The position numbers were made by a program, and so were the translations under genes. 40,299 bases of DNA from the NCBI GenBank assembly GCA_008632985.1, contig QPGO01000099.1, positions 62,001 through 102,299 of the forward strand, in the 5' to 3' direction. This document shows, piece by piece, positions 1,575 through 33,870 of the stretch (its first letter is position 1; each line of letters opens with the position of its first letter). The stretch is from Psammoneis japonica. Lineage: Eukaryota. The notes under the pieces were generated by a model that worked only from the letters and a program-made list of their open reading frames with translations, ran no database searches and was not told where the DNA came from.

Positions 1575-3830
1575 TCAAGAACCGAAACACCATGAGACCA
1601 AGATGATTCCCGATTGCAGAGACTGCTTTTTAGCAAAAACAACGCCCAAACCCAGCAGTCGATTCGTGCGGCTATTCTTCAGTCTTCCAGCCTTCCATGC
1701 TTTCTTTTGATAGCTCAACCAAAATCCAAGTCTCTTTCCATTTTCAATGTGGTGACAAGGCACTTTGCAACTTCCCTCGCACTCCGCAAATTGTTCTAGA
1801 GAAGAGAAAACATAGTCTCCCATTGCTCAGCCAAAATGTCCCACTCAACTCCAGCCTTCTCCAGTCGTTCTTGTCTAGAAGCATTAAGTTTTCCTTTCCT
1901 TTTGGCTGTCCGTTGCTTGATCAACCACCTTCCAAGGTTCTCCCCATCCTCTTTGTGACCGTGCAGCACCCTGCAATGGCCCTCACGCACCACAAATCGT
2001 TCAAGGCAAGAAAACACAGTCTCCCATTGCTCAGCAAAAACTTCCCACTTAACTCCAGCCTTCTCCAATCGTTCCTGTCTAGAAGCGTCCAGAGTCCCTT
2101 TCCTTTTGGCTGTCCGTTGCTTGTTCAACCACCTTCCAAGGTTCTCCCCATCCTCTTTGTGACCCTGCAGCACAATGCAATGGCCCTCATGCACCACAAA
2201 TCGTTCAAGGCAAGAAAACATGGTCTCCCATTGCTCAGCCCGAATGTCCCACTCCACTCCAGCCTCCTTAATTTTTTTCTTTGTCAATGTCAAGCTTGCC
2301 AAGCTTGCATTTTTGCCGTTGCTTCTGCGACCAACTTCCAAGGGCAAAGCCATCCTCGGTGCACATTTGTTGGGAACATCACAATTGTTTTCTCTCTCCA
2401 AGCAAACCAAGAGCAGGCTGCAAGCATGACTCCATTTGTCATCATTCACACTCCACTTGACTCCGCCTTCTTGAGTGCTTGTTGACAAGAAATGTCCAGC
2501 ACCCCATTCTTTTTAGCTCGCTGTTGTCTGCTTGGCCCCCAAATTCATCCCCTCCTCTTTGTGGCCACAAGGAACGTTGCAACTCCCTTCGCGGTCTCCA
2601 CACACCAAGAGCACATCGCACATGCGATCCCAGGAACTCTTGTCTTTGCATTCTCTGATTGCCCTGTGCATGATGTCATTTTTCTTTTCAAAGGACAATG
2701 AATCAGGAAGCATGAAGGAATCAAGGACACAAGGAGGGTGCTCATTTCTTCAAATGGCCTTCCAAGTCTGTTGCTCTCTTCAATCACAAACAAGACGTCC
2801 TGATGCAATTCAGGATCTAGACCAACCATGGCCTCAAAAGCAAAGGCAAACATTTTGCATCCATTGGTGTCCTTGGACAACAGTTCTTCATCAGAAGTGT
2901 TTCTGGCTCACACGCCCAATCATTTGTTGTGCCAGGACTGAACTCCGAACGGGATCAGCCACCATTGCAACCAACTCCCAATCTGCCTCGTCAACACCTG
3001 CAGCCAGTGCTTTCCAGTTGGCAATGATGGGTTTGGATGCAGACTTTCCTTTCAACAAACCTTTTCCCGTTTTGTGGCAGACATTTTTGGGCTGCCACTG
3101 ACAGGAAATGCAGCAATGTTGTCCTTCAAAAGGAGAGTCAAGAAGAGTCCGCAAACGCATGTGCCCGGGCATTTGCAGAGTGAAACGAGACTGCATGATT
3201 CACGTTGAGTTTGTGAAAAGCTGCTTGAATGGCAAAAGGCACCAGGGAATGATTTGAAAGATCATTTGAATGATGGGCATGTGGCCACAGATTTTGCCTC
3301 TGTCCAACACGCACAGCGCAATGGGAACCACAATGTTGCACTCTGCACTTTCCTGCAGTGTCTTCCTCTCAACACATGACCCAAACAATGGCTTGTCATC
3401 AAAGCTCCGAACAGCTGCAGCCTTGTGAGCCACAGTCTTGTCGTCCCTTTTCAGCGACAGAGTTTGTGCTCCAAACTTGTCAAGCTTGGATCCTGACATG
3501 GCAACTTGCTTCAGAGATTTGGTGCATCGACAAGGGGTGGCTGCAAGAAAAAGTTGACAGTCAATGGGAAGGATGCTGTTGTAGAGACCGCAACCAAACA
3601 AATTGCCAGCACCTTCCATCTTGTGTGCTTTGTCAAAGATGCCAAACCTGATGCTGCTGCCCAGCTTGTTTGAAGCCTTGCCAACCTTGGGCAATGAGTT
3701 GCACGTGCAGCTGACAAACTGCAACTCATCATCATTGGAAAAAAGAAATGCTGCAATCTTGTCAACAGATGTTGTGCATGCCTCAGATCGACTGGTTTGG
3801 CCAGCCGCAATCAATCTCGAGTGAGTCACA
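1575..3830 (-). pseudogene. Decayed SF2 helicase C-terminal part plus tandem helicase-associated (HA, PF03457-like) repeats, copy 1
   Basis: HA repeats of about 60 aa (WETMFSCLERFVVHEGHCIVLQGHKEDGENLGRWLNKQRTAKRKGTLDASRQERLEKAGVKW) at 1796-2488 and 1575-1823. Helicase motifs SCTCNSL, IFDKAH and LFLAATP at 3200-3829. Stops, frameshifts and TpA depletion. Confidence 0.8.
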
Positions 3831-4762
3831 TTTTGTCAAATGCTCCAGATGAATCCAAAACTCCCAGAACTTGATCCACAAGTGTGAGCTTTGGTGTTGC
3901 ATGAATCGCCACTTGCACTCCTTTGAATCACAATCTTGCAAGCATTTCAAGGCTGAGCAATGTTTCACCCCCATCCCCGGGGAAGCTGAGTGTTGGCTTG
4001 GTGGTGTTTCTCATCATCAGATGATCTCAGTGTGTCACCTGCACTTCCATTTGAATTGCTCCCTCTCCCCACAGAGGATTTGTTGTCATCTCCACAGCAG
4101 TGACTTGTGAGAGAATCAATGACATCATTGTGTTGATCATCACAACATTGACAGCAGCGGCTTTCTTGATTTTCTGTGCACGACACTTTGATTTCTGAAG
4201 ATCATGTTTTTGTTCTTTGATCAATCTCGCTGGTGATCATTCTGTGGTCTTGTTGCAGATGCTCAATCCCAGAACAGATCAGATCCTCACTTGAGTCAAA
4301 ACTCGAAACACCGCTTTGCTGAGAGTCCAGATTTGATGGCTCATGAACAAAATCGACAGCTGTGTTGTTCAGCACATCCAAACATGCTGATTTCAGGTGA
4401 GCTGGGCCTTGTGGCTTTGCATGGAAAACTTGCATTGGTTGAAATGACAAAGAGCCAGAACAACAGATGCAAATCAGCACATGAACCAGAAACGTCTTCA
4501 TTGCATTGAAACACACGCATCAACCATGGCCACGTTGTTGTCGGTGGTCAGAAAAAATCACGCGAACAACACAGTGATGCCATTGGCATGAAATTCTGGG
4601 TGGACGGTGGATGTGCCGGCCCTCATGTTGTGCTGGAAATGCACTTTTGGCAGTGAAAATTAATCGAAACGGTTTCTGATCTTAACAGCTTCTCTCACTT
4701 CATTTTGTCTGCTTTGCAAAACACACACACAAAAACAAACAAACAAAACAGGCAATCTGGCG

Positions 4763-5640
4763 ATGATGAGCAATCAGGCACTGCCATCTGCTGGCAACAG
4801 TTTGTCCAATGGCGACACTGCATCTGCAATGCCTGAAAGCAGCAGCGGTTCAGCAGCACCTCATGGTGTTCCCAACCGCAATGCAGCTGTTTGTGTCAAT
4901 GTCCTGTGGGGCAAACAAGGCAGAGACAACACGTTCAAATTGCAAACCAAGGTTGATCCACAGTCATTTGGTCCAACTCAGGGTCTGCAATTGTGAGAAG
5001 AAGACACTCAACAAATGAACTGACAAATGAACTGAAGGGCAGCTCTGGAAATGTGAGGAACAATGGTGCTTCAGAAACCCGGAATGGATCATCCCTGAAC
5101 GGCAACAATGCTCATCAAGCAAACGGGGGCGGTTTCACCATTCGCGTGAATGAAAATGGCATGCCTGCAGCAACAATGCAACCAAACAGAGCACGTCATC
5201 AAAATGGCATTGGAGGTTCGAACGCAGTTGGTGGTTTGGGTCCCAATGCTTGCACATCACCCATGGCTGGATGCAATGGTGCCGCACGGCCTGTGCTGCC
5301 ACCCTTGCTCCCTCAGCAAGCAGAGTTCAAGTCGATGATTGTTCTTCATTGAGCTTGAAATGTGCCATTTGTTGAGATGTCCTGCAAGATCCAGTGGGAT
5401 GTGGAAATGACTGTTCTGCAAGGTTTTGTCAAATGTGTTTGGAGCAGCACTCTGCTCGTGCTTGGGGCAGAAACGATGCACCCAAGTGTCCTTGTTGCCA
5501 AAGAGACACTCAATCAATCAAATCTGATGCTGAGTTCAGGAGCAACTCAAGGACATCATTGTGGAGCGTGCTTGTGGTTGTGATCAACAAGACATTGAGC
5601 TCTGTGATTGGAAGAGACACAAACACGATTGTCCGAATGT
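4763..5640 (+). pseudogene. Hypermutated RING-finger (E3 ligase-like) gene fragment
   Basis: From about 5355 reads LKCAIC*DVLQDPVGCGNDCSARFCQMCLEQ...KCPCC, a RING-type Cys spacing with an in-frame TGA. Preceded by low-complexity N/G-rich coding-like sequence. No TpA seen. Confidence 0.55.
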
Positions 5641-5649
5641 GAAGCTGCA

Positions 5650-6790
5650 TTGTGCCCACAAGGTCCACAAACAATTTGAACACCGGAAACAATTTGATCA
5701 GAGGCACCCCACTTTAGTGTGAGTGCTTGGGCTCCAAGCTCGCCCAGCTTGGATGTCAACACAGCAACTTGTTTTGGAGACTCAGTGCAACGACAAGGCA
5801 TGGCCATTGGGAACAGGCGGCAGTCAACTGGAAGCAACGAATTACAGAGTCCATGACCAAACAAATTTCCAGCCCCTTCCATCTCGTGCACTTCATCAAA
5901 AATGCCGAATCCCGCGCTGACTCCAAGCTTTCTAATGGCATCTCCTGCCTTGGGCAGTGAGTTGCAAGTGCAGGTGATGAAGGGCAGCTTGCCCTCATTG
6001 TGAGACAGAAATTCCACAATTTTGTCAATGGATGTCGTGCAAGCCTCAGCACGGCTCGTTTGGCTGGCCACAATCTGTTGGGAGTGAGGAATTTTGGCAA
6101 ACACACCAGATTTGTCTGTGGATTCCAATGCTCGATCCACCAGAATCAGCTTCATTGTCGCGCAAATGGCAGACTCGATTTTTGATCTAGATGGACCTGA
6201 TCCTTGTTTTGCCATCCTGGCAAGTGTTTCCAAACCAAGCAATGTTTTGCCCCACCCCGGTGGAAGTGCTGCATTGGCCCTGCGATGATGATCATGTGCG
6301 ACTGTGGAAGAAATCTTGTCTGAATGCCATCTTGAGTTGTTTCCATTCTCTCCTCCCAACGGTTTTTGGTCTCCACGATGACATTGCACGAGACATTCTG
6401 TTGTGTCATCATGACGGTTGCCTCGATGTTGACAGTTTGCTTGACTGTTTGATGATGCACCGGCACTTGGAGTTGTTCTTCTTGCAGTGGAGTGTTGCAG
6501 GTCTTGCTCACACTCACAATCTTGGGTTGGAAATGTCAGCTCATTTCGACAAAACTGTCAACATGCTTTTGGAAGAAACTCTCTTGGAGGCGGTTCAACT
6601 ACAAGCTCAACAAGACTGTCATTAAATGCTTTGACGGATGCCACTGAGAGTTGAAAAGCACTTTGTGATCTTTTTGGCAGTCCAAATCGCAGTGGCTGAA
6701 AAGATTCAGGCAGTTCAACTTGGAGCAAGAGGAGACATGGAAAGAGCTGTGAAGACTTCATTGTTCTTGGCATCTGCAGAGCAGCAAACT
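5650..6790 (-). pseudogene. Decayed SF2 helicase N-terminal part (motifs I-III), copy 1
   Basis: ORF 5556-6389 contains LPPGWGKT (Walker A), ITCTCNSL (Ib), IFDEVH (II) and RLFPMAMP (decayed TATP, III). Colinear with 23397-24660 on the opposite strand. Confidence 0.75.
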
Positions 6791-7084
6791 GTGCAATGTG
6801 CGATGGCCGTCACAAACCAGATGGTGAGTTTGCATGCTTGCGCGCAACTTCTGATCATCTGCACTGCTCTGTGCTCACCGGGCAGAACACACCAGAGGAG
6901 AGGTGACAAATGAGAGAGAGAGACAGAGAGAAACAGACTTCTCTTCTGCTGCTCAAGCACACCACACCACAGTCATGCTTGTCAGAAGATTGTGCCAGCT
7001 TCACAAAAATGTGTTTGGGGCAGAGGTCGACAAAACATGATTTTCCACCCAGTCCCGCCAGCCTCATGTTCATTCTTGCCAACT

Positions 7085-7690
7085 GAATGATGGCAAAGTT
7101 CAGAGATGGTGGCTCGGAGCATGTGTTGAGTTGTTGGCTTTGCAAGCCTTTGCCTCCAAAGAACACACAAGCTTTCCACTCACATGAGCGCCCCATTGTT
7201 GATTGCTGTGCAAGAAAAGCTGCCAACTTGGCTGCCTCTCAAATTGTGGCTGCACCACAGCCTTTCAAACGCAGTGTGTTGGTGGAGGAGTGTGTGTGTG
7301 TGTGTGTGTGTGTGTGGGTCCAGCTTGGGCTGTGCACTCACAAAGTGCACCAGAACAACTTCTCAAACCTTGAGTTGTTTGCTGCCTTCTGAAAAGCCAC
7401 CCAGGTGTGCCCAACACTCAAACTTTGGGTGCCATGTTGGCTCATGAAAACTTGGCACACAGATGACCCAAGGTTGATGCCCAAGAGGCAAAACTGGCAC
7501 TCAACACCAAAATGGCAGAGGCTCAATGCAAAGGGAAGCTTCCCATGGAAAATGGGCATGATGGGAAAGACTGAGGAGCATTGGAAATGCGTGGACCCCC
7601 CCATGAAAGCAATGGTCCCGGCATTGGCAGACTCTCACAACGGTTTCAGCACCACAATGGCGAGCATGACCATTTTGGTCAGTGCAGTCC
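7085..7690 (+). pseudogene. Hypermutated duplicate of the 3' half of the D-lactate dehydrogenase gene
   Basis: Aligns by eye to about 760-1310. Examples: gacccaaggttgatgcccaagaggcaaaactggcactcaa vs gacccgaggttgatgtacaagaggcaaaaatggcactcaa, and ggcattggcagactctc vs ggcattggcggactctc. Indels and frameshifts. Confidence 0.85.
7290..7316. repeat. (GT)n microsatellite inside the dld pseudogene
   Basis: About 13 TG units, absent from the intact dld copy (gaaggagtgcagggg). Confidence 0.95.
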
Positions 7691-7866
7691 ATGGAGCAGA
7701 GCAATTGCCATGTGTTCCTCATGCTCCAACTCTTTAGCTGGTCGAGAGCGGCAAGGTTATCTTCAACGATGACTCTAGCTGGTAGACGATGCAGTCTCCT
7801 GTGTGTTGTTTTCTATGTATCACTGCGTAGCTGACAAGAGTAATAAGAGCAAGGACATCATCTACT

Positions 7867-10239: not shown

Positions 10240-10499
10240 CTCTATCGTACTAGAGAGCGATCATTCTGACCGCAACATCAAACAGCGCGTATCTCATGGT
10301 CTAAAAAAAAAAAATCGGTCTAATACGTAGGTAGAACTTGTGTAGAATTTGATAAGGACGCAATTCCATTTGATAAGGACAAGTAGAAAGCAACGGTCCA
10401 GTTTGGTAGAAATTTGAAAAGGACGCCTGACGGGGAATCCTCTTCATTTCCTTCATTCCACTCAAATGATCCCGATTTGGCACATCGTACCGTAAGAAA

Positions 10500-11960
10500 C
10501 GGCCATTCGCATTGCACTTTGATGTGTCTCGGCATGGCAAACATCGTGGGGCAGACGCATTTTGCATGTGTGATCTCTTTCTATCGCTGTCATGAAGAGG
10601 TTGACACATTGGCTTGGCTTCCTGGGGGGCTTTGGTTGTGACACACGGTGCAAACCGTTGCATGCATCGACTCGTGCCTCGATTGCTGCACACTGCGGGT
10701 TACATCTGAATGGTCGACAACATTGCCAAGGTGAGTTCTTCATGCATTTTCTCATTTTATTTCATTTCCCTGTTTGCTGAAGATTGTTGTTGTTTTTTGT
10801 TGCAGCTCACAAGGTGGGTTGATCGTCTCATGCGGTCGATTAAGATTCTGTAATGTTGGCATGTTGTTCAAGTCGCTGGTGCAGCCAAAGCACATCCGTT
10901 TGGGATCTTTGCACTTCGTCCCACTCTGCGTCCTTTGGCGCACCCAGTGTGCACATCAATGTGGATTTGTGATGTGCTTGGCATCCTTCTTGGGGGCTTG
11001 GTCGGCACATGATCACGGCATGCCGTGCATTCGGCCGTCACAATTTTTGGAAAGCGCGCGCCGTTGGAACAAAATGATGCGATGGAGCCTGGGGGACACT
11101 TGCAACATCAGCAATTGTCAGACAGTCTTGTCACAGTCCAAAAAAGGTGATCCTGTGAGTGTGCTCCAATTGTTTCATTGCTGGACTCGTTTTGACAAAA
11201 CTTGCACACCTCACGAGCCTTTTTTTGTGCGTCTCATTCATGCGTGCAGGCATCTGGTCTGTGATGAGCCTTTTTTCCTGTTCTGCAATCGATTCTCTTC
11301 ATTGTCTAAGACACAATGTCATCCACGTCATTTTGGGAGATCTTGGCAGTGCGCCAATGAGCCCAGGAGGCTTTGCACAGGGTAAAATGGGGAGGTCGAG
11401 GCTTGTGTTGGCGGGCTCATTGCCTGCTCTTGAATGTGCGGATGCCACGAACTGCTGATGGCACATTGGGGCACAAAAATTGGTGAGGCGACTCAGCTCT
11501 GCCTCCAAAAGGTGCCCTGGTGAGCACACTGTGTCATGTGATCCCATGTTGTTGTGTGCGTTGTTCCACTCATGTTTTTGTTTTGCCTGTCATTTTCCAG
11601 TGTGAATGTTGTTTGCTGTCACAGGTTGCAGTGGCATTTCCAGGCCCACATTCTAAATGAAAGATGTCTTTTGATGTTCCTCACTCACATGGGGAAATCA
11701 GATCCTGGAACTTTCTGCATCTGGTCGGGTCTCTAGAGAGGGAATGGATGGAACAATGTGGAGCCGGTTGCAGAAAAGTGATGAAAAAATGTTTGGCAAG
11801 TGCGCTGTTGTGTGTCGACTGTGGAGTCAGTCAGCTGTGGGTGTGTGCTTTTTCTGCATTTCTGTGAGCAACGAACCAGCAGATGATGCACCTGGACAGA
11901 TCATGCAGTGTTGTTGTTCTTCAGAGTGTTTGCTCCAGAGAGCAGAGAGCCACGACTGGC
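10500..11960. other. Hypermutated (TpA-free) sequence of unknown origin, probably a decayed transposon or gene
   Basis: Sharp compositional change between two divergent genes. Only Cys/His-rich short ORFs, with no motif I recognise. Confidence 0.45.
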
Positions 11961-12088
11961 TGGCCAGCTAGAGCAGATAGCTTCTCTCTTTCCCCTCCTC
12001 CTTTTCCTCTTCTTTTTTTCACAAACTTGGAGCCACCTGCGTGACCGGACACATGCCGAAATTCCTCAAATCCAAAATGAAACCAGCG

Positions 12089-12590
12089 GCGAGCCCGCTT
12101 GGAAGATGGTGTGTTTCTGCACAGTCTGCTGTGCAAGAAATGTCTTGGCCTGCTTGGAAGATGGTGCACACTCCACACAGTCCACATGAAATCCTGCAGC
12201 CCACTTGGAAGATGGTGTGTTTCTACACAGAGTGCTTGAAATCCCGCAGCCTGCTTGGAAGATGGTGTGTTTTCTCCAGAGGGGGGAGTCTGCATGGTGC
12301 AAAGATCCTGCACAAATTTTGCTTTTAGCCTGCTTGGAAGATGGCATGCTTTCCACACAGAGAGCTTGAAATCCCGCAGCCTGCTTGGAAGATGGCACAT
12401 TTTCCACAGGGAATCTGTGAGGTCCACAGATCCTGTGCAAATTTCACTTGGTTGGAAGGAGTCCCGCAGCCTGCTGGAAGATGGTGCATTTCTACACAGA
12501 GTGCTTGAGATCCCGCAGCCCACTTGTTTGTATTTTCTATGGGGAATCTGCATGGCACAAAGATCCTGTACAAATTTTACTTGGAAGGAA
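12089..12590. repeat. Degenerate tandem array of about 50-bp units (core gcctgcttggaagatgg, 7 copies) interspersed with three copies of a second unit (gatcctgtacaaattttact type)
   Basis: Unit A consensus atcccgcagcctgcttggaagatggtgtgtttctacacagagtgcttgaa. Unit B copies at about 12304, 12429 and 12562. Confidence 0.9.
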
Positions 12591-14492: not shown

Positions 14493-14890
14493 GTGCATCG
14501 TTGTCGTCTGTATCATTACACTACACTGTAGAGTACCGGTACGAGTATGTTCGGATCGTGGAATACGCCACGCCTTCTTTTCCGCAAACGTTGTACTCTC
14601 GTGCCTCTCCATCCATTCGGAGTGTCTGTATTCACAAAAAACCTCCCAGTTCCGCCATTTTCGAAATGTCATAGCTTGAAAGTGCCTCAACAATCTCCTC
14701 CTCCAAGACGTTGTGCATAATGAGTTGAGCACAAGCATTCTTGGGCTGTTGTGCAAGTGCAATTGGCTGCATAAGTTTTTTTCTAAAAAGGCGGGCAAGC
14801 AAAAAATATGCACTCCACGTTGAGGTGCCGGGGACACATTTGTCTCAAGATGAGACATGCTCCGTTCAAGCTTGGAATCAATATCTATAA
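14493..14890 (-). pseudogene. Fragmentary duplicate of the 3' end and downstream flank of the CRAL-TRIO gene
   Basis: Aligns to about 16589-16985 (gcatcgttgtcgtctgtatc...ggaatacgccacgccttctttt...; IDSKLERSMSHLETNVSPAPQRGVHIFC vs INFKLERSVAHLTANVFPVPQRGVHVFC). Confidence 0.85.
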
Positions 14891-15158
14891 CGCCTACGCG
14901 CCTTCTAGCTAGTGGGGCGTTGGGCAATCACCATCATTCAACCGTGGCACGCATTGAAGTATCTGATGGCATGAATCGCCCAATGATCAGTCCAGAATGA
15001 CACAAGAGACGCCATCGTACCGTATGAGGGCGGGGTGTGCTTGCGGTTCGGGGTTCGCATTCGCAAAGTTCCGCTTTTCAGCTGGGAATTTTTAAAATGT
15101 CGGTTGCCCCAGATATCTTCGTCGGGTTCGCATAAAGTTACCTTCTACCAACACCACC

Positions 15159-15770
15159 ATGGTAGCCTCCACAGACAACACCATCCCGGAACCTCTCTAC
15201 GATCCTGTCACCGGCGACTTGATGATTGACCCTGTCGTCAACCCTGCCGGCGATTCGTACGAGAGGAGCACTCTTGAGGGTTCGGATGTGACGTATTACC
15301 CCAACCGAGCTCTACAATCCATCATTCAGCGAACAATCGAACTCGAATCGGACTCACTGCATGGAGCGTTGCGACGAGTCAATGAATCCCTCCAAACAGA
15401 ACTTGCACGTTTCCTCGAGGCCACTCTCGGCATCGAGCGTCATCCTCTTCACGAAGCATTTTACTGTCCAATCACACATGAACTGATCTGTGATCCAGTC
15501 ATTACACCAGATGGGGTGAGCTACGAGTATGAAGCAATTGCTCAGTGGATTCAAAGCAGAGGCCAATCACCGGTATCGCGAACTCCATTGTCGTTGAATG
15601 ACTTGCGCGACAACAACGCGTTGTACGAACTCATTCAACTTGAAAAACACCGCAGCGTTGACTCGATTCATCCCTCGATTCGACGCTGGAAGGCTTCTGG
15701 CAGTACTTCACGAAGAGCTCGGAATTCCCATCATGTAGAAACTGGTTCCGTGTCTTCATCAAACGCGTAG
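15159..15770 (+). CDS. Tandem U-box domain protein (E3 ubiquitin ligase-like)
   Basis: Two U-box motifs: LYDPVTGDLMIDPVVNPAGDSYER...YPNRALQSII and FYCPITHELICDPVITPDGVSYEYEAIAQWI...SPVSRTPL...NNALYELI. Confidence 0.85.
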   Translation: MVASTDNTIPEPLYDPVTGDLMIDPVVNPAGDSYERSTLEGSDVTYYPNRALQSIIQRTIELESDSLHGALRRVNESLQTELARFLEATLGIERHPLHEAFYCPITHELICDPVITPDGVSYEYEAIAQWIQSRGQSPVSRTPLSLNDLRDNNALYELIQLEKHRSVDSIHPSIRRWKASGSTSRRARNSHHVETGSVSSSNA

Positions 15771-15929
15771 ACCTTGATGTTCGTGTGCTGTAGTGGTCGC
15801 TGGAAGTAGGCAGCTGCAGCCGGGCGATCGAAGGCAAAAACCAGAAAATATTCCCTTAATGCACAATTAGGAAACAGATGTCAACATAGCGCAAGGCGTC
15901 TTCTAGAGCTAGCCTTCAACAATGACGGA

Positions 15930-16320
15930 ATGTGATGGTTAACCTTGATTCGCTCTACACACTTTGCAGGCGGCGTATCGTAGCTTTCCAAATAGATCTG
16001 CAGCCTCAACCCGCTGCATGTTCATGCAGTCCAAGGTGGAATTTGATGAAAATACGAGGCTCGTTACCGTCCACGTTATCATATCGGAACTGTTCCTGTG
16101 AGACCTTCTCTTTGAAATGCGACGGAGATAACATGCACGAATTTTTTATTGTTCCGCGTGACTCAACCATCGGTCATTATTGATATCAACGTCTCGAGCC
16201 TTTGTGACGCCTCGTTTCCGATGGTTAAGCTTGTTTAGCTTTACACGCTTTGCAGGTGCGGTTAACGATACTCGCAGCGTTTCAAATAACAGATCCATAC
16301 GCGCGAGTTTTTCCCCGGAC
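15930..16320. pseudogene. Mosaic of short decayed fragments of the CRAL-TRIO gene (about 17350-17545) and the 19-kb gene (about 19437-19645)
   Basis: tgtgatggttaaccttgattcg matches about 17457. gcagtccaaggtggaatt(t/c)gatgaaaa(t/c)acgaggctcgttac matches about 19450. gcgtgactcaaccat matches about 19627. Confidence 0.75.
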
Positions 16321-16683
16321 ACTTTGTCCATACAAGAACGAGCAGCGCCTGTGTCGTTGTAAAATGCAAAATTTTGGAAAAGAAAGCCGTGCCCATTAAT
16401 TGCCATGGCTCCAGTACCAATTTCGAGCTTGTTGTTCTAAGTGCTGGACTTGAGAGCTGTCTCTTGCTTTCATTTACTTTCGACATACGGTATAGCTGCA
16501 AGTGATATCTTGCGAAGGACACTGTTTCGTCTAGTGGGGAATTTTGGCCCACTTTAAAATAAGGACGACTTCCCGGAAGCACATGCCGGCATCGTTGTCG
16601 TCTGTATCTTTACACTACACTCGAGCATACCAATACGTTCGGAGCATGGAATACGCCACGCCTTCTTTTCCAAACCTTCTACT

Positions 16684-18591
16684 CTAGTGCCTCTCCATCC
16701 ATTCAGAGTGTATGTATTCACACGTACCTCCCAGCTCAACTGGAATCGCCTTTTTCGAAATGCCATAACTCGAAAGCGCCTCAACAATGTCTTCCTCCCC
16801 GACGTCGTGTATAACAATTCGAGCACGAGCATTCCTGGGCTGTTGTGCCAGCGCAATCGGCTGTATAAACTTAGCCAAAAAGAAGGGCACGCAAAACACA
16901 TGCACTCCTCGTTGAGGTACCGGGAACACATTTGCCGTAAGATGAGCCACGCTCCGTTCAAGTTTGAAATTGATATCCCACGCTGACGCGCCTTTTATAT
17001 TGAGCATCAAAATAAATCCCTTGTCAGCGTTAGGGTGTTGGGCCATCACTTCATGCAGAAGCCAATACACTTGAATCAAATTCCTAGTATCGTATCCATT
17101 GTAATCATTCAGTCGAAGCATGCAATGAAGTATTTGACGGCCTGAATCGTCCAATGAAGGTAGCAGTCGAATTAACCCCACTCGAACAGCCGCCTTTGCA
17201 TCTCCCATAGCTTCATCGATGGTAAGAGGCAAACAGAACTTGTCTCGTCCAAACAACTGCAGTCGTTCTTCCCAATATGAAACATATCGACGTGCCGCCG
17301 TCTCAGGATCCATGTCTACTCGTTTCAGAAATAGCTCCAGTCGGTCGTCATTTATCTCAACATCTCGAGCCTTTTGCTTTGCCTCTAACCAAGCTTTCTT
17401 TTCACGTGGCAGGATGAGTTCCATGTGACGCTTCATTTCCGATAACAAGGATGGAGTGTGATGGTTAACCTTGATTCGTTTTACACGCTTTGTAGGTGGC
17501 GTTGTCGATACTCGTAGCTTTCCAAATAGATCCGCGGTTGCAGCCCGTCGCTCATCTTCTGTGAGATCAAGGTCTTCCGGATGTTTTTGAATTGATGACG
17601 ATTCTGTCAAGGTTGAGAATAAGAATTCAGCAGCCGCAATGTCTTGACTCGTTAATGATTCTGATGGTTCTTCGGGAGACGTGGTTTGCTGTTCGTAGGC
17701 GTCTTTCCGGTGCTGAGTAACCGGCAATTCTTCAGGAGAAGTGGAACGTGGTTGATCAGCGCCTTCGTGGCTCTGCGGTGGGCTATGAAGACTAGGGGAG
17801 TTTCGTGCCTCGTTTCGAGCAGGAATGGGCCTTCCAGAAAAGCTTCTGGTCTCGTTAGTATTAAGTTGGTCTCGCAATGACTTTAATGGGGAGATATCTG
17901 CATCACTGCTGTCTCGTTTCTGTGCCTGGTTGCGGGTACCATTTCGCTCTTCTTGTTTCTTGTCTGGTGTCAAAGCTTCTGTGCCTATAGGTGGTGCGAC
18001 ATGCTGAGCATCCCGAGGTAGCGACGGCTTCTGACCCTCTACGAGATGGACAATGCCATTCCTTTGATCAGAGGCGCATTGGGACCAGGTCATCCGACTT
18101 TGTATCGTGGGTACTGGCTGTGAATATTGTATTGGCAATAGGCGTAAAGGTGACATCGGAACTGCAGCAGGCGGAAGAAATGGATTGCGAGCCAAGAATC
18201 CAAGTTGATGGAGCATACTTTGGCTGCCATGGGCTGTATGCATAGGCGAAACATTGCTGCCTGACCCACTGTGCTCGTTCTCACCAATCTCACACTCCAG
18301 TTTTTGTCGCAAAGCGTGCTTGATCTTGGTGAGGGCACGCTCAGTCGTTATTTCCCTCCATTGGCATACATCAGTGACTTCCATAAAGCGCCCCCGTCTT
18401 GCATGGACGTCATTCAGTATCTGCTGTGCCAAGGCCATCTTGTCAACTCGTTTCCGTAGCGACTGGTATGTGCTTTTGTATCTTCGTACAAGCTGTGAGA
18501 AGTGACGATTGCCGCTATGCTCTCGTGGACCCCTTCCTCGTCCTAACAATACGTCATTTTCAGTGGGATGTAAAGAGGAAGCTTGTTGCAT
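16684..18591 (-). CDS. DUF6824-like N-terminal domain, low-complexity linker and C-terminal CRAL-TRIO/SEC14-like domain (635 aa, intronless)
   Basis: NDVLLGRG...HSGNRHF...KIKHALRQ is the diatom-expanded DUF6824 pattern. FLKRVDMDPETAARRYVSYWEERLQLFG, DDSGRQIL and YGISKKAIPVELGG fit CRAL-TRIO. Confidence 0.85.
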   Translation of the reverse strand: MQQASSLHPTENDVLLGRGRGPREHSGNRHFSQLVRRYKSTYQSLRKRVDKMALAQQILNDVHARRGRFMEVTDVCQWREITTERALTKIKHALRQKLECEIGENEHSGSGSNVSPMHTAHGSQSMLHQLGFLARNPFLPPAAVPMSPLRLLPIQYSQPVPTIQSRMTWSQCASDQRNGIVHLVEGQKPSLPRDAQHVAPPIGTEALTPDKKQEERNGTRNQAQKRDSSDADISPLKSLRDQLNTNETRSFSGRPIPARNEARNSPSLHSPPQSHEGADQPRSTSPEELPVTQHRKDAYEQQTTSPEEPSESLTSQDIAAAEFLFSTLTESSSIQKHPEDLDLTEDERRAATADLFGKLRVSTTPPTKRVKRIKVNHHTPSLLSEMKRHMELILPREKKAWLEAKQKARDVEINDDRLELFLKRVDMDPETAARRYVSYWEERLQLFGRDKFCLPLTIDEAMGDAKAAVRVGLIRLLPSLDDSGRQILHCMLRLNDYNGYDTRNLIQVYWLLHEVMAQHPNADKGFILMLNIKGASAWDINFKLERSVAHLTANVFPVPQRGVHVFCVPFFLAKFIQPIALAQQPRNARARIVIHDVGEEDIVEALSSYGISKKAIPVELGGTCEYIHSEWMERH

Positions 18592-18992
18592 GGTGCACTT
18601 CAGAAGGCACGTTTTGAAGAAAGCACGGTTGTATTGTTCTCTCAGCAGAATGAGAAAAAGTGCTTATCGTTGTGTGAGAATGCAGGCTTCACGTCGTGCG
18701 AGAATAGCAGGTGGCGGGCGGGGGGTGAGTGAGCCCCCCTCTGCATAATTTTTAGTATTCAGATTTATATATACTTGTATTTGAATAGCGGGGCAAATAT
18801 TTCAAAAAGTAAAAGGGTGGCAAATATTTCAAAAATGTGTTGCGACGCAACGATGCACAGATCCAAGATCGAAGACCGGCGGATGCGAGGCGATGAGTGA
18901 TGAGGAGACGCGGATTATTCTGTATCTAACCAAAAATAAGTGTGCTCATATAGTGCTGTTAATCATCAACCCGTACCTTTTTCAAGAGCATC

Positions 18993-19771
18993 ATGACGGT
19001 AACTTCAACGAATCAAACTCCTACTGGGAGCGAGACTCGGGAATGGAAAGCAACTTCAAGTCCGGGTAAGAATTGCAACAGACATTCTAATCGCGATGTG
19101 CAGTAATAGCGTCTCGGAGTAGTGACACCGAAAACCGTCTTGTTGAAACGTACAGAAACAAATGGAGCTCACAGTGCATAATTTTCTTTGTTTTTCTTTC
19201 TCGGACTCTCGTTTCTACCTGCGCTAACTGAATTCATTGACGAAAAGTATCCCAGAACACCGCTTCCAACATCCCAACTCAGAACCAGCCGATTCCATTA
19301 TCGGACCTTGTCCCGAACTCTGCATCGGGTTCTCCGAAGCTTGTCCCCGACAAGAATGGGATTGCTGTCGTTGAGACACCGCTACCATGTCTCGCCTATC
19401 TGTTCATGCTTCCCTTCCCATTCTTTTGTATGGGATGCTGCATGTTCAAGCAGTCCAAGGTGGAATTCGATGAAAACACGAGGCTCGTTACGGTTGTTGT
19501 AAGGAGAGGCGCATGTCCTTGCTCTCGGAAGAAAACCTTTTCCTACGACGATATCGGAAATGTTGCTGTGAGACCCGTCTCTTTGACGGTCGATGGGGTT
19601 AAAATGCACGAAACTCTTATTGTTCTGCGTGACTCAACCATGATTGGAACCGGCCGAGTCGAGTCTAAAGAGAGTGCCTTTGAGTTTGCAAAGGAGATTC
19701 ATCTCTTTATCTTTGGTCGATCTGGCAAGACCTACGTCCCGCCAACCATGAGTGACATTCTCCTCTCATAA
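18993..19771 (+). CDS. Hypothetical small membrane-anchored protein. 5' exon structure uncertain, last exon about 19249-19771
   Basis: ATG at 18993 followed by a GT donor (gtaaga). The last exon is open through a hydrophobic segment (CLAYLFMLPFPFFCMGCC) and a beta-rich domain to TAA at 19771. A decayed copy near 16010-16170 supports it being a gene. Confidence 0.55.
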
Positions 19772-20118
19772 CTGTCGAGTAGGGATCAGGTATCATTGCA
19801 CGACTTTGGGTCACAGTGGAGCTATTGCTGATGATGGCTCGGGATACGACCGACAGTTCTTCTGTCAATGGGCATTGTTTGGTAGTGCCTTTCTTCTGTG
19901 CATTTACCATGTATGCTGTCAATACCTACTACAGGAAGTGACAACTTTGTCGATTTTCTGGGTGCTTGGGATGCTAGTCATACTGTAGGGCTATGGTGCA
20001 ACGTGGCGCAAAGGTGCAGAACAGTAGGAATGTCACCGAAGAGTCGAAAGAGTTGGCAGCTATCACGGTAGAGAGTCTGTGTCGAAAGAAAAAGAAGAAG
20101 GTGATGGAAATGAATCCG

Positions 20119-20705
20119 ACGGTAGCCACCACAGACAATACCCTCCCGGAACTTCTCTACGATCCTATCACCGGCGACTTGACAGTTGACCCGGTCGTCA
20201 ACCCTGCCGGAGATTCGTACGAAAAGAGCACTCTTGAGGGTTTGGATGTGACGTATTACCCCAACCGAGCTCTACAATCCATCATTCAGCGAACAATGGA
20301 ACTCGAATCGGACTCACTGCATGGAGCTTTGTGACGAGTCAATGAATCGCTCCAAACAGAACTTGCACGTTTCCTCGAGGCCACTCTCGGCATCGAGCGT
20401 CATCTTCACGAAGCATTTTACTGTCCAATCACACATGATCTGTGATCCAGTCATTACACCAGAGGGAGTGAGCTATGAGTTTGAAGCAATTGCTCAGTGG
20501 ATTTGAAGCCAGAGGCCAATCACCGGTATCGCGAACTCTATTGTCGTTGAGTGACTTGCGCGACAGCAACACCTTGTACGATTTCATTCAACTTGAAAAA
20601 CACCGCAGCGATGACTCGTTTCATCCTTCCATAAGACGCTGGAAGGCTTCTGGCAATACTTCACGAAGAGCTCGGAATTCTAATCGGTCTTCATCAGACG
20701 CGTAG
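20119..20705 (+). pseudogene. Pseudogene duplicate of the U-box gene
   Basis: Near-identical to 15159-15770, but ATG>ACG, CGA>TGA at 20332, small deletions and a second TGA near 20504. Similarity continues into the 3' flank to about 20820. Confidence 0.92.
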
Positions 20706-20849
20706 ACCTTGATGTTCGTGTGCTGTTCCGCGGATCGAAGGCCAGAAGCCAGAAAATATTTCGTAAATGCACAAATAGGAAAAAGACATCAAAAGAGCGA
20801 GAGACATTTTCTAGAAAGCGCAGCAACAATACTAACAACGGGGTGTAGA

Positions 20850-21098
20850 GCCATTACTTCACGTATAGCCAATACACTTGAATCAAATTCCTATTATCGT
20901 ATCCATTGTAATGCACAATCGCGGCACACGATGAAGTATCTGACGGCCTTAATCGTCCAATAAAAGGAGCAGTCGAAAGGTGCCCACTAGAAGAGCCGCC
21001 TTTGCATCTCCCATTGCTCCATCGATGGTAAGAGGTAAACAGAACAGTCGTTCGTCCCAATACAACATATCGGCGTGCCGCCGTCTCAGGATCCATGT
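20850..21098 (-). pseudogene. Internal fragment duplicate of the CRAL-TRIO gene
   Basis: MDPETAARRYV and YNGYDNRNLIQVYWL match about 17040-17315, with deletions. Confidence 0.85.
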
Positions 21099-21245
21099 TT
21101 TTCGTTGCATCATACTAGACGACGGGAGAAACGCTGCGATTATATGGTAGAGACCAGATGTAATACAAAAGCAAAGTGGATTTTACAAAATACTATCAAG
21201 ACGAAGACGTTTGGTTCTCTATAGAGGCTTTTGGTACTACCTCCC

Positions 21246-22942
21246 CTACGCTCCAACACCTTGATCTTCAAAAAAGCTTTCGCCCTTTGCTTTTGTTCCG
21301 GATGGCACCGTCTTTCCCGGTGCCACCTGAACATCGTTAAGACTGCAATTCTCGCCAACACTACTGCCGGTCCCAAGAATGGAATTCTGCAAGACACAAT
21401 TGTCGCCCACCGTCACGTCATCCATAATCACGACATTGTTCAGGCGGCACTTTGTTCCAAGCTTGGATCGTCGACCCACTGTACTCGATTTACAAGTTAC
21501 CTTTTCGCCAGTGACTGCATCCTTGAGAAGAATGGAACGGAATTTCGATTGCACCGTGGATCCCTCTGGAATAGTAGGATTCGTATTAGTGGGATTGACA
21601 GCGACAGAAACAGCCTCTCGACAAGCATATAGATAGGCAGGTACATAGGATGCACGAAGTGCCACAACCTTTGTGTCTGCGTCGTTCGGTGGTTCCAATA
21701 CATGGGCACAAACAGCGTACTCGTATTCGCGTCTTTGCGTAAAGGCCGCCTTGATCCCACCGCCGGAGGTTGCTCCCATGTTGCTAATGCTCTCATCAAA
21801 ATCGGAACCTGACGTAACATCACTTGAAAAGGGAGGTTGGCTCAATACTTGTTCCAGCGACTCCTTTTGTTCGTCCGTCAGTTTTTCAATTTGACTCGCA
21901 TAGGTTGCCACGACACCACGAAACTGCCTCGACACCAAGAGGGGCAACACGTCACTTTGCATAGAGATAGCACCTGGTCTTGTGGCCAACCAACGACGGA
22001 CCCATGGAGCAATTACATAGGCATGTAAATCATTCCATTCCGTCTTGACCCGGACGGTGGATCCTCGTAATCTTGGTTTGGGCAAGATGAGCTTTGGAGT
22101 CTTTCCCAGTAGCTCCTCGTCCTCTTCAACATCAATTTTGGATTCCTTCCAAATGATTCGCGGTGGAGACTTGTCAGATTGTGTAGCCAAGCCAATGTAT
22201 TCCACGTCTTGTTCTTCTCGAGCGAGACCGCCTTTCTTTTGCTATATGACGAGAATAACAATAAATACAGTACGATGAGAGATTGCTGCTTTCTCTATAG
22301 ATGAAATCAAAAGTCAAGAGGAGCATAGTATCATACCTTTGCAGACTCTTTTAGCGGAATGCCATTTGCATCAAGCTCTTCTACATTTGCCAGCAGAATA
22401 GTACAGGCGGTTGGTATGGTTTTCTTCTTTTTGGAAGACAGCATTATGGAGCTGTTGCCGTGACGGTGGTCTTGAGCCAGCTGTACCAACGCGTCTGGAT
22501 CTAACACAACCAAGTCGGATGGCAAGACCATGACATGACTGCTGGATGGAATCACGTGGTCCACCTGTCGTAACGCATCCGCTGATCCAGCACAATCTTC
22601 TGACAAGTTCACCAACGTTACGTGTAGCTTGTTGATTTGAACGCAAGCGCAGTGATGATGATGTGTTGTTCGTGCAGCAGAAGAAGCATCCGTCTCTTTT
22701 GTTTCTGCTTGTTGCAATACAGGTAACGTCACGGAATCATCATGAGCAAGAGCAACAACACATGATTCAAATCCACTCTTTTCCAACGTCTGAAGGAGAT
22801 GCAGCAAAAGAGGGACACCGCCGACCGGAAGCAAATGTTTGGGAGTTTGTTTTGAAGTTAACGGAAACAATCGGGCGCCTGTAGTGGCTGCAAAAACGAC
22901 AGCCACAAACTCGGGGCTGCTTTCAGTCAAACTACCGGTCAT
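21246..22942 (-). CDS. EIF2B3: Translation initiation factor eIF2B gamma subunit. Exons 22942-22337 and 22241-21246
   Basis: N-terminal nucleotidyltransferase-like AVVFAATTGARLFPLT...PKHLLPV, GSADALR and LPSDLV. C-terminal left-handed beta-helix repeats (KCRLNNVVIMDDVTVGDNCVLQNSILG). Phase-0 intron 22336-22242. Confidence 0.88.
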
Positions 22943-23396
22943 TCCTTTGCAGTTCTGGGGTATATTAAGAGGAATAGGAACTAGCTAATGTTGATAACAC
23001 TGGCAGAGACGCCGCAACAATGTTTGATAATGATAAGGTACGGTATTCGTATGCGTCATGGCCTGCGACCTGCGACCCGCAGAAAAAAATGTGGGGAGCG
23101 CGCGCGGCGCGCGTTCGTCTCGACCAGATGCTGACGACGTTCAGACGACTAAGGCGCGGATCTTGGCTTACGCTTGCTTGCTTGCGCTTGATTTACAGCA
23201 TTGCTTGCTTTCGAGCGGTCAAAAGTGTTGACGGATGACGGCCATGCATGCGACGTACGGCCCAAAATAAAACCCAAAACACCAAATGGGGGTGTGCGGT
23301 GTGCGTGTCATTGGCGAGTTCTGACATCTGTGGCTGGCTTGGACTTCAAATGGTGGTTCCACCGGTTTCTCTTGCCTTGTCCTGTTGCCACACTCG

Positions 23397-26211
23397 CTCT
23401 GCAGATGCTGAGAATGACGAAGTCTTCAGAGATCCTTGTGTGTCTCCTCTTGTTCCAAGAAGTTGAGCTCTCCAAATCTTTTTGGCCCCTGCAAACTGGG
23501 CTGCCAAAAACATCATGAAGAACTTTTTAACTCTCGGCAGGGTCTGCGGTGGAAGCATTGCTCTCATTGAGCTCGCAACTGAACTGCCTCCCAGAGAGAT
23601 TCTTCCAAAAGCATGTTTGCAGTTTCGTCCAAACAAGCCAACAGCTCCAGCCCAAGATTGCGAGTGTGAGCAAGACCATCAACACTCCGTCACACAAGAA
23701 CAACTCAAAGCACATCATCAAACTGTCAAGAAAGCTGTCAACATCAACGCAGCTGGTGCGATGACACAGAGTGGAATCTCTCATGCAACACTGTCATGGA
23801 GACCAGCACCCGTCAGGAAGAGAGAACGGAGACAACTCAAAGCAGCATGAAAAGGAGAGAGCTCTCCATCAGTCACATGTGACCATCACAGCAGGGCCAA
23901 CAGAGCACTTCTGCCGGGGTGCTGGTTGTGAATCTGGTGCGTTTGCCAACAGCTCTCATTTCCGACTTGTTGTGGCCAGCCAAACAACCCATGCAGAGCC
24001 TTGCATGATGTCTTTCGACAACGTTGTGGCTTTTCTGGCTTTTCCAATGAGGGCAAGCTGCCCTTCACAGCTTGCACTTGCAACTCATTGCCCAGGGTGG
24101 GAGGCCTGTTCCAGCTCCAGGTGATCCGCTTTTCATCATGTGATGGGCCGATTTTCTGCGCAGTTTGGCGCATTGAACTCCTTCAATTTTGATCGTTTCA
24201 AAAATCAAAAGGCAAGTGCACACCCAAAAACACATGCAAAGTGCACACTTGCCCTTTGATTTGGCAAAAAATGGATTTTGAAAAAGTTCAATGCGCCAAA
24301 TGCACAAATTTCCAAATGATGGGAATCGAACCCGCGCGGATCACCTGGAGCTGGAACAGGCCGGGAGAGGCCATTGGAAAGCTTGGTGGCAGCATGGGAT
24401 TTGGCATTTTTGACAAAGCACACAAGATGCTGGAAGGGACTGGAAATTTGTTTGGTCATGGTCTCTGTGATCTGTTGGCCCCAACAGTGGACTGCCACCT
24501 GTTCCCAACTGCCATGCCTCGTCATTGCACCAAGTCTCCAAAACAAGTTGCTGTGTTGGGATCCAAGCTGGATGAGCTTGGAGCCCCAGCACTCACACCA
24601 AAGTGGGCGCCCCTGATCAAATTGTTTCTGGTGATCAAATTTTTTTGTGGATGGGTCGCTGTTTGGATCATGTGTTGAAGAACAGAGCCAGCAAGAAAGT
24701 GTGGAGCTCATCATTGCAGCTCCTGCAACACTTTGCATGTTGGACAGAGAGGCCAAATTGCAAGTGTTGTTCTCAGAGACATGTGCATCCATGAAAGGGG
24801 CTCGCTTCTTCCATTTGCCACTTGAGCATCATTTTGCAAGCCCAGTGCTGTGTCCTTTCACTCTGCAAATGCAAGAGCAGAGGTGTCTGCAGATTCTGCT
24901 GGAAGAAGACATTTCTGCATTGGCAGTGAGCGGCAGCCCAAGAATGTCTGCTGCAAAGCGGAAAAAGGTTTAAAGGAAAGCACAGTCTGTGCCCATGTCT
25001 GTTGTTGCAAACTGCAAAGCACTTGTGACAGGGTGTCAACAAGGTGGATTGGGAGTTGGTTTGTGATGGCTGACCCTGTTTGGAGCTCAGTCCTGGTGTG
25101 TGCCAAATGATTGGACATGCAAGCTGGAAAAAGAGAAAGAAAAACCGTGGCTGTGCTCTTGTTCCTGCTCCAGTTGCTTTGGACAATGCATGGTTGTCCA
25201 AGGATGCCAATGAATGCAAAACTTTTGCCACTGCTTTTGAGGCCATGGTTGGTCTAGATCCTGAATTGTGCCAGGATGTCTGGCTTGTGATTGAAAAGGG
25301 CTGCAGGCTTGGAAGGCCTTTGAAAGACAACAAGCTCCCTCCTTGTGTCCTTGATTCCTTCATGCTTCCCAGTTTTGTGTCATTTGAAATTAAAAATGAC
25401 ATCATGAACACCATCAGAGAACACAAGGACGTGAATTCCTGGGATCACATGTGCAATTTGCTCTGGGTGCACTGAGGCCGCGAAGGGAGTTGCAATGTTC
25501 CTCACAGGCACAAAGAGAAGGGGACAAGTTTGGGGAGTTGGTTGAGCACACAACAGCAGACCAGAAAGAATGGGATGCTGGATGTTTTTTTTTTCAACAA
25601 GCGCTTGAGAATGCTGGTGTCTGGTGCTGGAAAGAGAACAAGGGCAGAAGATGGAATCATGCTCACAACCTGCTCTTGGCTTGCTTGGTGAGAGAAGGCA
25701 ATTGCAATGTTCCTCTTTGATGCACCAAGGATGGCTTTGCCCTTGAAAACTGGCTGCAAAAGAAATGGCAAAAATGTGAGCTTGGCAAGATTGACATTGC
25801 CAAAACAAGAAAAACTCAAGCAGGTTGGTGTGAAGTGGGGCTTCTTTGAAGACCAGTGTGGGACAGTGTTTTCACTTCTTTTGCAATTCAAGAAATGGGA
25901 GGGACATTGCAGAGTGCCAAGGGGCCACAAAAAGGATGGGGTGCATCTTGGAAATTGGCCAGGCAAGCAGCAGACAACCAAAAGGAAAGGGACTCTGGAT
26001 GCTTCTTGACAGGAACAACTGGAGCACGCTGGAGTTGTGAGGGATGTCCATGCTGAGCAACTGGAGACTGTGTTTTTTCTCTTCCAGAACAATTCAAAAA
26101 AGGGGGGAGGGCATTGCAAAGACTTGGACCTTGGCTGATGAGCAAAAAAAGAAGGTCCAAGGGTGGAAGACTGAAGAACAGCCAAAAGGAGTGACTGTTG
26201 GATCTTGGAGT
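23397..26211 (+). pseudogene. Decayed SF2 helicase plus HA repeats, copy 2 (inverted relative to copy 1), interrupted by a MITE and by the copia element
   Basis: Colinear with the reverse complement of 6790-5650 and 3450-1660 (GFGIFDKAHKM, CHLFPTAMP, WEGHCRVPRGHKKDGVHLGNW). Confidence 0.8.
24103..24362. mobile_element. 260-bp MITE with perfect 27-bp TIRs and 4-bp TSD GGGA
   Basis: TIRs ggcctgttccagctccaggtgatccgc and gcggatcacctggagctggaacaggcc. GGGA at 24099-24102 and 24363-24366. Removing it restores alignment to helicase copy 1. Confidence 0.92.
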
Positions 26212-26225
26212 TTACGGACCAGTGG

Positions 26226-26379
26226 TGTCGGGACAATCTAACAGATGTCTGGGACAGATGACAATCGTGCACCAGATGAGAAAGAAAGTGAGCAGAGAGA
26301 GATCATCGGATCTCTCAATGCTGTCCATGCCAGTCTGTCTGAGACAAGGGAGTGCACTCCCCGTCTCAGATGTCTGTCA
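26226..26379 (-). repeat. 3' LTR (154 bp)
   Basis: Direct repeat of 33382-33535. Begins TG on the minus strand. Confidence 0.92.
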
Positions 26380-26388
26380 CCCTCCCCT
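26380..26388 (-). promoter_or_regulatory. Polypurine tract (AGGGGAGGG)
   Basis: Immediately precedes the 3' LTR on the minus strand. Confidence 0.85.
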
Positions 26389-26491
26389 GATGAGCAATGC
26401 AAAAGCTCATCAAGAAAGAAAGGAGACAATCCAAGAAAAAAAATGAGGACCAGAATGGCAAGCCAAAGAGACACACAAAACAGAACAACAA

Positions 26492-33380: not shown

Positions 33381-33381
33381 G

Positions 33382-33829: not shown

Positions 33830-33833
<4 letters not shown>

Positions 33834-33870
<37 letters not shown>
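33834..33870. repeat. (TC)n microsatellite
   Basis: About 18 TC units. Confidence 0.95.

Follow-up and report, generated by a model that had tools for sequence, protein, structure and literature searches.

Several kilobase-long blocks in one contig of the diatom Psammoneis japonica contain almost no TpA dinucleotides, which raises the question of what removed them and why a few were spared. The blocks lie in a 40,299-base stretch of contig QPGO01000099.1 (positions 62,001–102,299 of the forward strand; assembly GCA_008632985.1). This stretch is referred to as the window, and all counts given here come from it. The best overall explanation is, in our judgment, that repeat domains were hypermutated in place by transitions at TpA, with each strand read as T-A-N and with adenine deamination as the probable chemistry. 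We consider this explanation likely.

TpA-Poor Domains and Their Contents

Two-state segmentation on TpA density placed TpA-poor domains at 1886–7734, 10494–12492, 23269–29616, and 30012–40298. Their observed/expected ratio is 0.03–0.11 for TpA and 0.37–0.61 for CpG, with TpG and CpA at 1.4–1.8. The normal domains have TpA ratios of 0.48–0.86 and CpG ratios of about 1.0, and the borders are sharp at the 500-base scale. The segment 1886–7734, for instance, holds 14 TpA (observed/expected 0.04) and has a CpG ratio of 0.37. CpG is also lowered in the depleted domains, in the direction of TpG and CpA. This apparent methylation-type CpG decay accompanies the loss of TpA and cannot explain it.

Judged by sequence similarity, the TpA-poor domains are repeats, namely a Copia-type retrotransposon, two inverted copies of a helicase-HA (helicase-associated) repeat, and a dead duplicate of the 3′ end of the neighboring D-lactate dehydrogenase gene. 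Copy A of the helicase-HA repeat (1699–6782, minus strand) forms the core of the block 1801–7700 and matches the Pfam HA family (E = 6.9e-35) and, weakly, ResIII. Its HA units at 1590–2743 form a 204-nt tandem array, helicase-like pieces are found at 3200–3829 and 5556–6389, and the copy has an internal partial duplication. The best named relatives of the HA open reading frame (ORF) come from Fragilariopsis cylindrus. Copy B (23396–26094 or 26224, plus strand) is inverted with respect to copy A; 11 inverted repeats and colinear BLAST segments of 68–84% identity connect the two, and HA homologs map onto 25245–26290 in this region.

The Copia-type element (26225–33535, minus strand) contains gag and pol, with weak Pfam matches to RVT_2 and retroviral SH3. 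Its long terminal repeats (LTRs) of 155 nt each are located at 26225–26379 and 33381–33535, and full-length Copia homologs align from 30733 down to 26501.

The dead D-lactate dehydrogenase duplicate (7205–7670, plus strand) lies within a TpA-poor domain and is 66% identical to 865–1307. This is part of the live gene, whose 3′ part occupies 3–1310 on the plus strand (Pfam Lact-deh-memb, E = 3.7e-60) and serves as the unmutated reference. The region around the live gene (1–1885) has a TpA ratio of 0.48. The live enzyme is of the membrane-binding type, a mainly bacterial family, and here stands in a eukaryotic nuclear setting. The dead copy carries a (GT)13 microsatellite at 7290–7316 that is absent from the live gene.

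Loss of TpA From Sequences That Once Contained It

The live D-lactate dehydrogenase gene has 14 TpA at positions that align with the dead copy, and every one of them has been lost there; they now read CA (8), TG (2), CC (2), GA (1), and TT (1). The dead copy also keeps only 2 of 29 CpG. Two of its changes, TTAA→CCCA and GTAC→GCCC, imply either a change on both strands or a transversion.

The Copia element could be compared with 35 full-length homologs obtained from a search of 1.84 billion representatives, and a codon was used if at least 60% of at least six homologs had Tyr. The 21 conserved Tyr codons found in this way now encode Cys (10), His (5), Trp (2), Ser (1), Phe (1), Leu (1), and Tyr (1). 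Cys and His are the expected products of TAY>TGY and TAY>CAY changes. Other residues in the same alignment are mostly kept: Phe in 14/16, Trp in 10/11, Asp in 21/23, and Pro in 28/31 positions. The HA protein alignment (33–45% identity) is too distant to give a direct view of Tyr replacement, and its codon-level map gave four usable codons.

Between the Copia 5′ LTR and gag there is an ORF of 699 residues (31080–33179) without a Pfam match. Cys and His are frequent in it, and the loss of TpA has left it without Tyr. The ORF may represent an extra element-encoded protein or be an artifact of lost TAA and TAG stop codons.

The two LTRs, compared by eye from their alignment, differ by 12 events in 155 columns. 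All are transitions, with no transversions, and 11 of the 12 affect TpA- or CpG-type dinucleotides: six CG↔TG/CA changes, three adjacent TG↔CA double changes, and two TA↔CA changes, leaving at most one background transition. Both TA↔CA differences are at YTAR sites (CTAA/CCAA and CCAG/CTAG; R, purine; Y, pyrimidine). Since the LTRs were identical at integration and now differ at TpA- and CpG-type sites, the mutation must have followed integration. A repeat pair at 36329 and 36651 that is 99% identical has a TG↔CA double change as its single difference. Among the double differences that separate copies A and B, TG↔CA is likewise the commonest, seen 93 times versus at most 17 for any other. On the evidence of these aligned copies, TpA formerly present in the sequences has been lost, both strands were affected, and mutation went on after integration.

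Surviving TpA and the Effect of the Flanking Bases

The TpA sites can be divided by their neighbors into RTAY, with TAY on both strands, half-sites, with TAY on one strand, and YTAR, with TAY on neither. The initial annotation of this locus, made from the sequence alone, had counted by hand about 17 TpA in the block 1801–7700, 13 of them YTAR, four with TAY on one strand only, and none RTAY. A full count gave exactly these numbers. The YTAR survivors are TTAA (6), CTAG (4), TTAG (2), and CTAA (1), and the other four are ATAG, GTAG, TTAC, and CTAC. The YTAR share of 13/17 departs from the 15% seen in normal domains (p = 3e-8) as well as from a flat 25% (p = 1e-5), and the absence of RTAY (0/17) gives p = 0.001 and p = 0.01 for the same two comparisons.

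The skew recurs in domains that had played no part in the annotation (10494–12492, 23269–29616, and 30012–36000), with 25/44 YTAR (p = 3e-10) and 1/44 RTAY (p = 2e-7). Altogether the 20.3 kb of depleted DNA retains 61 TpA, divided into 38 YTAR, 22 half-sites, and one RTAY. The 683 TpA of the normal domains comprise 105 YTAR, 340 half-sites, and 238 RTAY (chi-square, p = 3e-19).

The annotation had also drawn attention to the repeated survival of TCTAGA. This hexamer is present at every site it named, with exact starts at 1874, 2078, 2816, 6186, 25253, and 35645, and a seventh in depleted DNA was found at 11732. TCTAGA is undepleted, with seven in 20.3 kb of depleted DNA versus six in 15.7 kb of normal DNA, and it accounts for seven of the nine CTAG that survive in depleted DNA. 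Only about five of the seven are independent, because two pairs are homologous copies; those at 2816 (copy A) and 25253 (copy B) correspond to each other.

To describe the loss, we fitted to the NTAN counts a model that reads the two strands independently as T-A-N and adds up their contributions. The fitted loss exponents are 3.15 for TAT, 2.08 for TAC, 0.79 for TAG, and 0.49 for TAA. This additive half-site model reproduces all 16 NTAN classes and is favored over a single rate in a likelihood ratio test, both with the normal domains as the ancestral mix (92.9, 3 degrees of freedom, p = 5e-20) and with a flat ancestral mix (57.8, p = 2e-12). Because each strand loses TpA at a rate set by the base that follows the A, RTAY sites are lost first and YTAR sites last.

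The next base contributes as well. The best survivors are TAGA (31 in depleted versus 85 in normal DNA) and TAAA (28 versus 80), and the worst are TACG (2 versus 100), TACT (1 versus 91), and TATT (1 versus 127). TCTAGA survives because both of its strands read TAGA, the half-site that survives best. As far as these counts tell, the preference for TAY is graded, not absolute, and an A at +2 is further protective.

The rule can be followed outside the domains used so far. The held-out domain 36001–40298 has 36 TpA, consisting of 13 YTAR, 21 half-sites, and two RTAY. The same rates at a lower dose predict 13.1 YTAR and 5.1 RTAY, while uniform loss predicts 5.5 and 12.5.

The direction of change could be polarized at 16 asymmetric sites, and 14 of these agree with the rule (binomial p = 0.004). 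YTAY became TG in 10 of 12 cases (7/8 in the Copia Tyr codons, 2/2 in the HA units, and 1/2 in the D-lactate dehydrogenase pair), and RTAR became CA in 4 of 4 (three in the D-lactate dehydrogenase pair and one in the pair 1500–1700/33500–33700). The products are skewed in the same way, with an excess of 20.9 per kb for YTGY+RCAR versus 8.5 per kb for RTGR+YCAY.

The proposal in the annotation that the mutator prefers 5′-TAY-3′ is supported by the survivors, the held-out domain, the products, and the polarized sites. It has to be softened in that the preference is one of degree and most YTAR sites have been lost too. We regard context-dependent hypermutation of TpA as very likely.

Several points weigh against this reading. 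It is based solely on one stretch of 40 kb, and the ancestral NTAN mix of the repeats had to be assumed, either from the normal domains or from the flat model. One RTAY site has survived, in a conserved Tyr codon at 26776. At least one surviving TTAA, that at 1885, seems to have arisen from TCAA, as its paralogs read TCAA or TCCA; polarizing single surviving TpA by their paralogs succeeded at few sites only. Two of the 16 polarized sites changed in the opposite direction, and a Fisher test restricted to the Tyr codons is weak, at p = 0.12, and reaches 0.057 once the HA units are included. Finally, the 93 discordant TG↔CA pairs between copies A and B have the flanks Y..Y (30), Y..R (23), R..R (16), R..Y (15), or flanks that differ between the copies (9). 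They lack the R..Y enrichment that a simple reading of the rule predicts, which may be due to CpG-derived sites and to mutation shared before duplication.

Alternative Explanations

Composition alone would also fit domains of foreign or selected DNA that never contained TpA, or an assembly artifact. We give this almost no weight: a host gene fragment has lost all of its TpA, conserved Tyr codons have turned into Cys or His, and separately built contigs from a public sequencing run, which may itself be the source of the assembly, match letter for letter over long pieces. The D-lactate dehydrogenase copy and the Copia Tyr codons refute both origins. An origin in RNA is nearly as improbable. ADAR-like enzymes could have edited the RNA of the repeats, and reverse transcription would then have delivered copies that were already mutated when they inserted; ADAR hyper-editing produces A>G clusters in repeats with U preferred before the A, and Copia is a retroelement. 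However, the LTR differences at TpA- and CpG-type sites place the mutation after integration, and the dead host gene fragment and the helicase-HA repeat are equally mutated although neither has retroelement features. Moreover, ADARs act on RNA, are known from animals, and prefer a G immediately 3′ of the A that they edit, whereas here TAG belongs to the contexts that resist best and the same rule applies to both strands. ADAR-type editing was rejected on the grounds of the post-integration change, the involvement of both strands, and the resistance of TAG.

A different view of the survivors is that TpA was lost regardless of flanks and that the TpA now present are new, having arisen through C>T changes at Y-C-A as made by APOBEC-like enzymes. 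Such gain on either strand predicts about 50% YTAR, 50% half-sites, and 0% RTAY, not far from the observed 62%, 36%, and 2%, and the TTAA at 1885 does seem to derive from TCAA. Still, we find this improbable. The polarized D-lactate dehydrogenase pair has C>T at 4/32 YCA and 3/35 RCA, which is no preference, and the LTR pair has two TA↔CA differences but at most one transition outside CpG and TpA. Biased loss, on the other hand, predicts both the skew of the products and the strand on which 14 of the 16 asymmetric sites were lost. The less depleted held-out domain is already short of RTAY, and at 1813 and 2050 both CA and TG occur among the paralogs, pointing to TA as the ancestral state. A rival that leaves process and pattern untouched moves the chemistry to the thymine of 5′-R-T-A-3′, where T>C would follow from its oxidation to 5-hydroxymethyluracil or from its excision and error-prone repair. 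In all sequence tests T>C on one strand is indistinguishable from A>G on the other, and the half-site model can equally be written as N-T-A read on the T strand. This analysis found no direct evidence of thymine chemistry, though, and we know of no natural enzyme giving T>C at such a rate. The preference of tRNA adenosine deaminases for U before A, in turn, offers a reason for the choice of TpA. Thymine chemistry therefore seems unlikely to us, if less so than the other alternatives.

Proposed Mechanism

Under the preferred explanation, hypermutation at TpA in place, kilobase-scale repeat domains of the nuclear genome would undergo transitions within the chromosome, nearly exclusively at TpA and giving TpG or CpA, with ordinary CpG decay proceeding alongside. 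The agent would read one strand at a time as T-A-N, and such reading suggests an enzyme-like process unlike chemical decay. The most likely chemistry would be deamination of adenine in DNA to hypoxanthine, which would then be copied as G.

The leading candidate for the enzyme is a deaminase of the TadA/ADAT type, whose natural tRNA target has a U before the edited A. The initial annotation had named such a deaminase as one speculative candidate, and we hold the identification to be tentative too. A T directly 5′ of the target A is what is seen here, the loss being specific to TpA, and the U before A in the targets of tRNA adenosine deaminases offers a ready reason for this. A pyrimidine is favored at +1. 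Bacterial TadA reads U-A-C-G, and TACG is strongly depleted, but TACT and TATT are equally low. Among the 29 ORFs of the window that were scanned, none matched a deaminase family.

Targeting

The normal domain contains colinear duplicated blocks, 14495–16170 versus 16589–21098 (79–94% identity), that can be used as an internal control. Within them, the duplicates 15161–15907/20121–20815, which are two copies of a U-box gene, and 14495–14907/16589–16997 have normal TpA and an ordinary spectrum, with 42–47% of their differences being transversions and only 5–12% of the TA type. The duplication covers about 700 nt at 85% identity overall, with blocks of 90–94%. As these may be live genes, selection could mask an effect.

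A miniature inverted-repeat transposable element (MITE) of 400 nt is inserted in the Copia element at 29602–30001. It has terminal inverted repeats of 24 nt that are 92% complementary, and GACG flanks it on both sides. The MITE is unmutated (TpA observed/expected 0.86, CpG 1.55) and present in very high copy number, with a summed contig depth of about 74,000 compared with about 50 for single-copy bins. One contig of the public run skips 29598–30005 and lacks the MITE. With its normal to high TpA, the MITE either inserted when the latest round of mutation was over or belongs to a class of elements that escapes.

Duplication alone is not the trigger, because the duplicates in the normal domain keep their TpA and the high-copy MITE is unmutated. 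The dead D-lactate dehydrogenase fragment is mutated and its live twin, 6 kb away, is not. Taken with the decay of CpG in these domains, such targeting is consistent with an agent acting on silenced chromatin. We infer that the process is aimed at silenced repeats and not at any duplicated DNA.

Comparison With Known Systems

Repeat-induced point mutation (RIP), known from Neurospora and other fungi, also ruins repeats by dinucleotide-specific transitions in place, on both strands and with sharp borders. However, RIP makes C>T changes mostly at CpA and thereby creates TpA, whereas TpA is destroyed here. Fungal RIP was ruled out since the direction is opposite and duplication is insufficient as a trigger.

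TadA, ADAT2-ADAT3, and the base editors derived from TadA resemble the present agent in that a T or U precedes the target A. They differ in that their natural substrates are tRNA loops, with DNA activity either engineered or, in the literature as cited by the one relevant preprint (Mettrop et al., bioRxiv 10.64898/2026.01.13.699255), reported for a few ADAT2 proteins. TadA differs further in that TAT is lost here at least as fast as TAC, with TACG as just one of the most depleted half-sites.

The closest parallel is Bigelowiella natans. As the preprint text describes it (Mettrop et al., bioRxiv 10.64898/2026.01.13.699255), 231 of 302 new mutations in mutation-accumulation lines fell in two integrated viral regions, and nearly all of those were A>G or T>C at TpA. 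The process was active in some lines only, and new mutations arose in the living lines at about 1000-fold the background rate. Genes poor in TpA and rich in CpA+TpG were enriched for reverse transcriptase and transposase domains, and an ADAT2 homolog was proposed as the agent (bioRxiv 10.64898/2026.01.13.699255).

Two hallmarks of the Bigelowiella-type process, A:T>G:C transitions at TpA that give TpG or CpA and low TpA with high CpA+TpG, are present in P. japonica. To the extent covered by the preprint text, the two systems share the restriction to TpA→TpG/CpA, the sharply bounded foreign or repeat regions, and the composition, and our TadA/ADAT-type reading agrees with the proposal made for B. 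natans.

There are also differences, as judged against the same text. The families seen here are of diatom type and the lineage is another one. The erasure is near complete, with the ratios of 0.03–0.11 standing against 0.45 in the viral region of B. natans. The targets are Copia, a cellular-type repeat, and a piece of a host pseudogene, whereas those in B. natans are giant-virus inserts. Lastly, a 3′ flank rule is seen here, while a word search of the preprint's main text found no statement on flanking bases and no mention of diatoms. To our knowledge, P. japonica is the second alga, after B. natans, with TpA-only hypermutation of foreign or repeat DNA; it belongs to another lineage, and it adds the flank rule. 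Literature searches, judged by their listings, turned up no report of diatoms that lose TpA or undergo mutation resembling RIP.

Other Features of the Window

The domain 10494–12492 (TpA observed/expected 0.11) has short internal repeats, and its 13 TpA comprise six YTAR, seven half-sites, and no RTAY. Repeat DNA poor in TpA (observed/expected 0.03–0.08 in 500-nt steps) continues beyond the Copia 5′ LTR at 33536–36000. Its first part, 33536–33657, is similar to 1528–1646 of the normal domain, and in the copy at 33.6 kb a TTAA has become TCGA, generating a new CpG. The adjoining domain at 36001–40298 is rich in G+C and partly depleted of TpA (0.16–0.36). It includes a gap of 828 N at 38657–39484, and ORFs spanning this gap are artifacts. 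No Pfam family was matched by 13 further ORFs of the depleted domains, including the domain 10494–12492.

Copy B contains a near-palindrome of ∼137 nt at 24164–24300, with arms of 60 nt that are 77% complementary and 17 nt apart. It has no TpA, and the contig depth of its bin is about 11,000. Possibly this is another high-copy MITE, older than the first and already mutated.

Pfam analysis of the long intron-free ORFs assigned the gene content of the window to DUF6824, HA, CRAL/TRIO, U-box, AAA, D-lactate dehydrogenase, and Copia-type reverse transcriptase. The AAA protein has no close relative among the named database entries; its top match is 68% identical, and its named matches include a Pseudo-nitzschia transcriptome. 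A search with the DUF6824 protein gave a single weak match, uninformative as to lineage. By its Pfam families and best named matches, the window looks eukaryotic and diatom-like. Rfam and tRNA scans of the window gave no matches.

Public-run contigs aligned on 16001–36000 (4540 records, 2720 variant rows) differ from the window mostly by transitions, namely 535 A>G, 580 G>A, 467 C>T, and 420 T>C, with only 57–127 for each type of transversion.

Implications

Annotation is affected as well, since genes in the depleted domains are stripped of Tyr codons and keep just one of the three stop codons, so that long false ORFs appear there. The flank rule, with TAT and TAC lost far faster than TAG and TAA and with TAGA most resistant, provides a biochemical fingerprint against which candidate deaminases can be compared. 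Hardly any natural enzyme is known to edit A to G in chromosomal DNA; the 2026 chlorarachniophyte preprint is the sole report that we found. An enzyme of this kind would attract interest as a naturally occurring adenine base editor.

More speculatively, diatoms and chlorarachniophytes might share a genome defense based on adenine editing of DNA, which would then perhaps be old in SAR (Stramenopila, Alveolata, and Rhizaria). An enzyme acting on T-A-Y in single strands could erase nearly every TpA, and with it every Tyr codon and TAA or TAG stop, from silenced mobile DNA. TCTAGA would escape either as the poorest substrate (TAGA) or because something protects it, such as a site-specific modification or a protein bound there. 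We put this forward as one possibility only, and think it rather less probable than not. The same but more complete footprint in a diatom does suggest that something like fungal RIP, but with the chemistry running the other way, may be widespread among algae.

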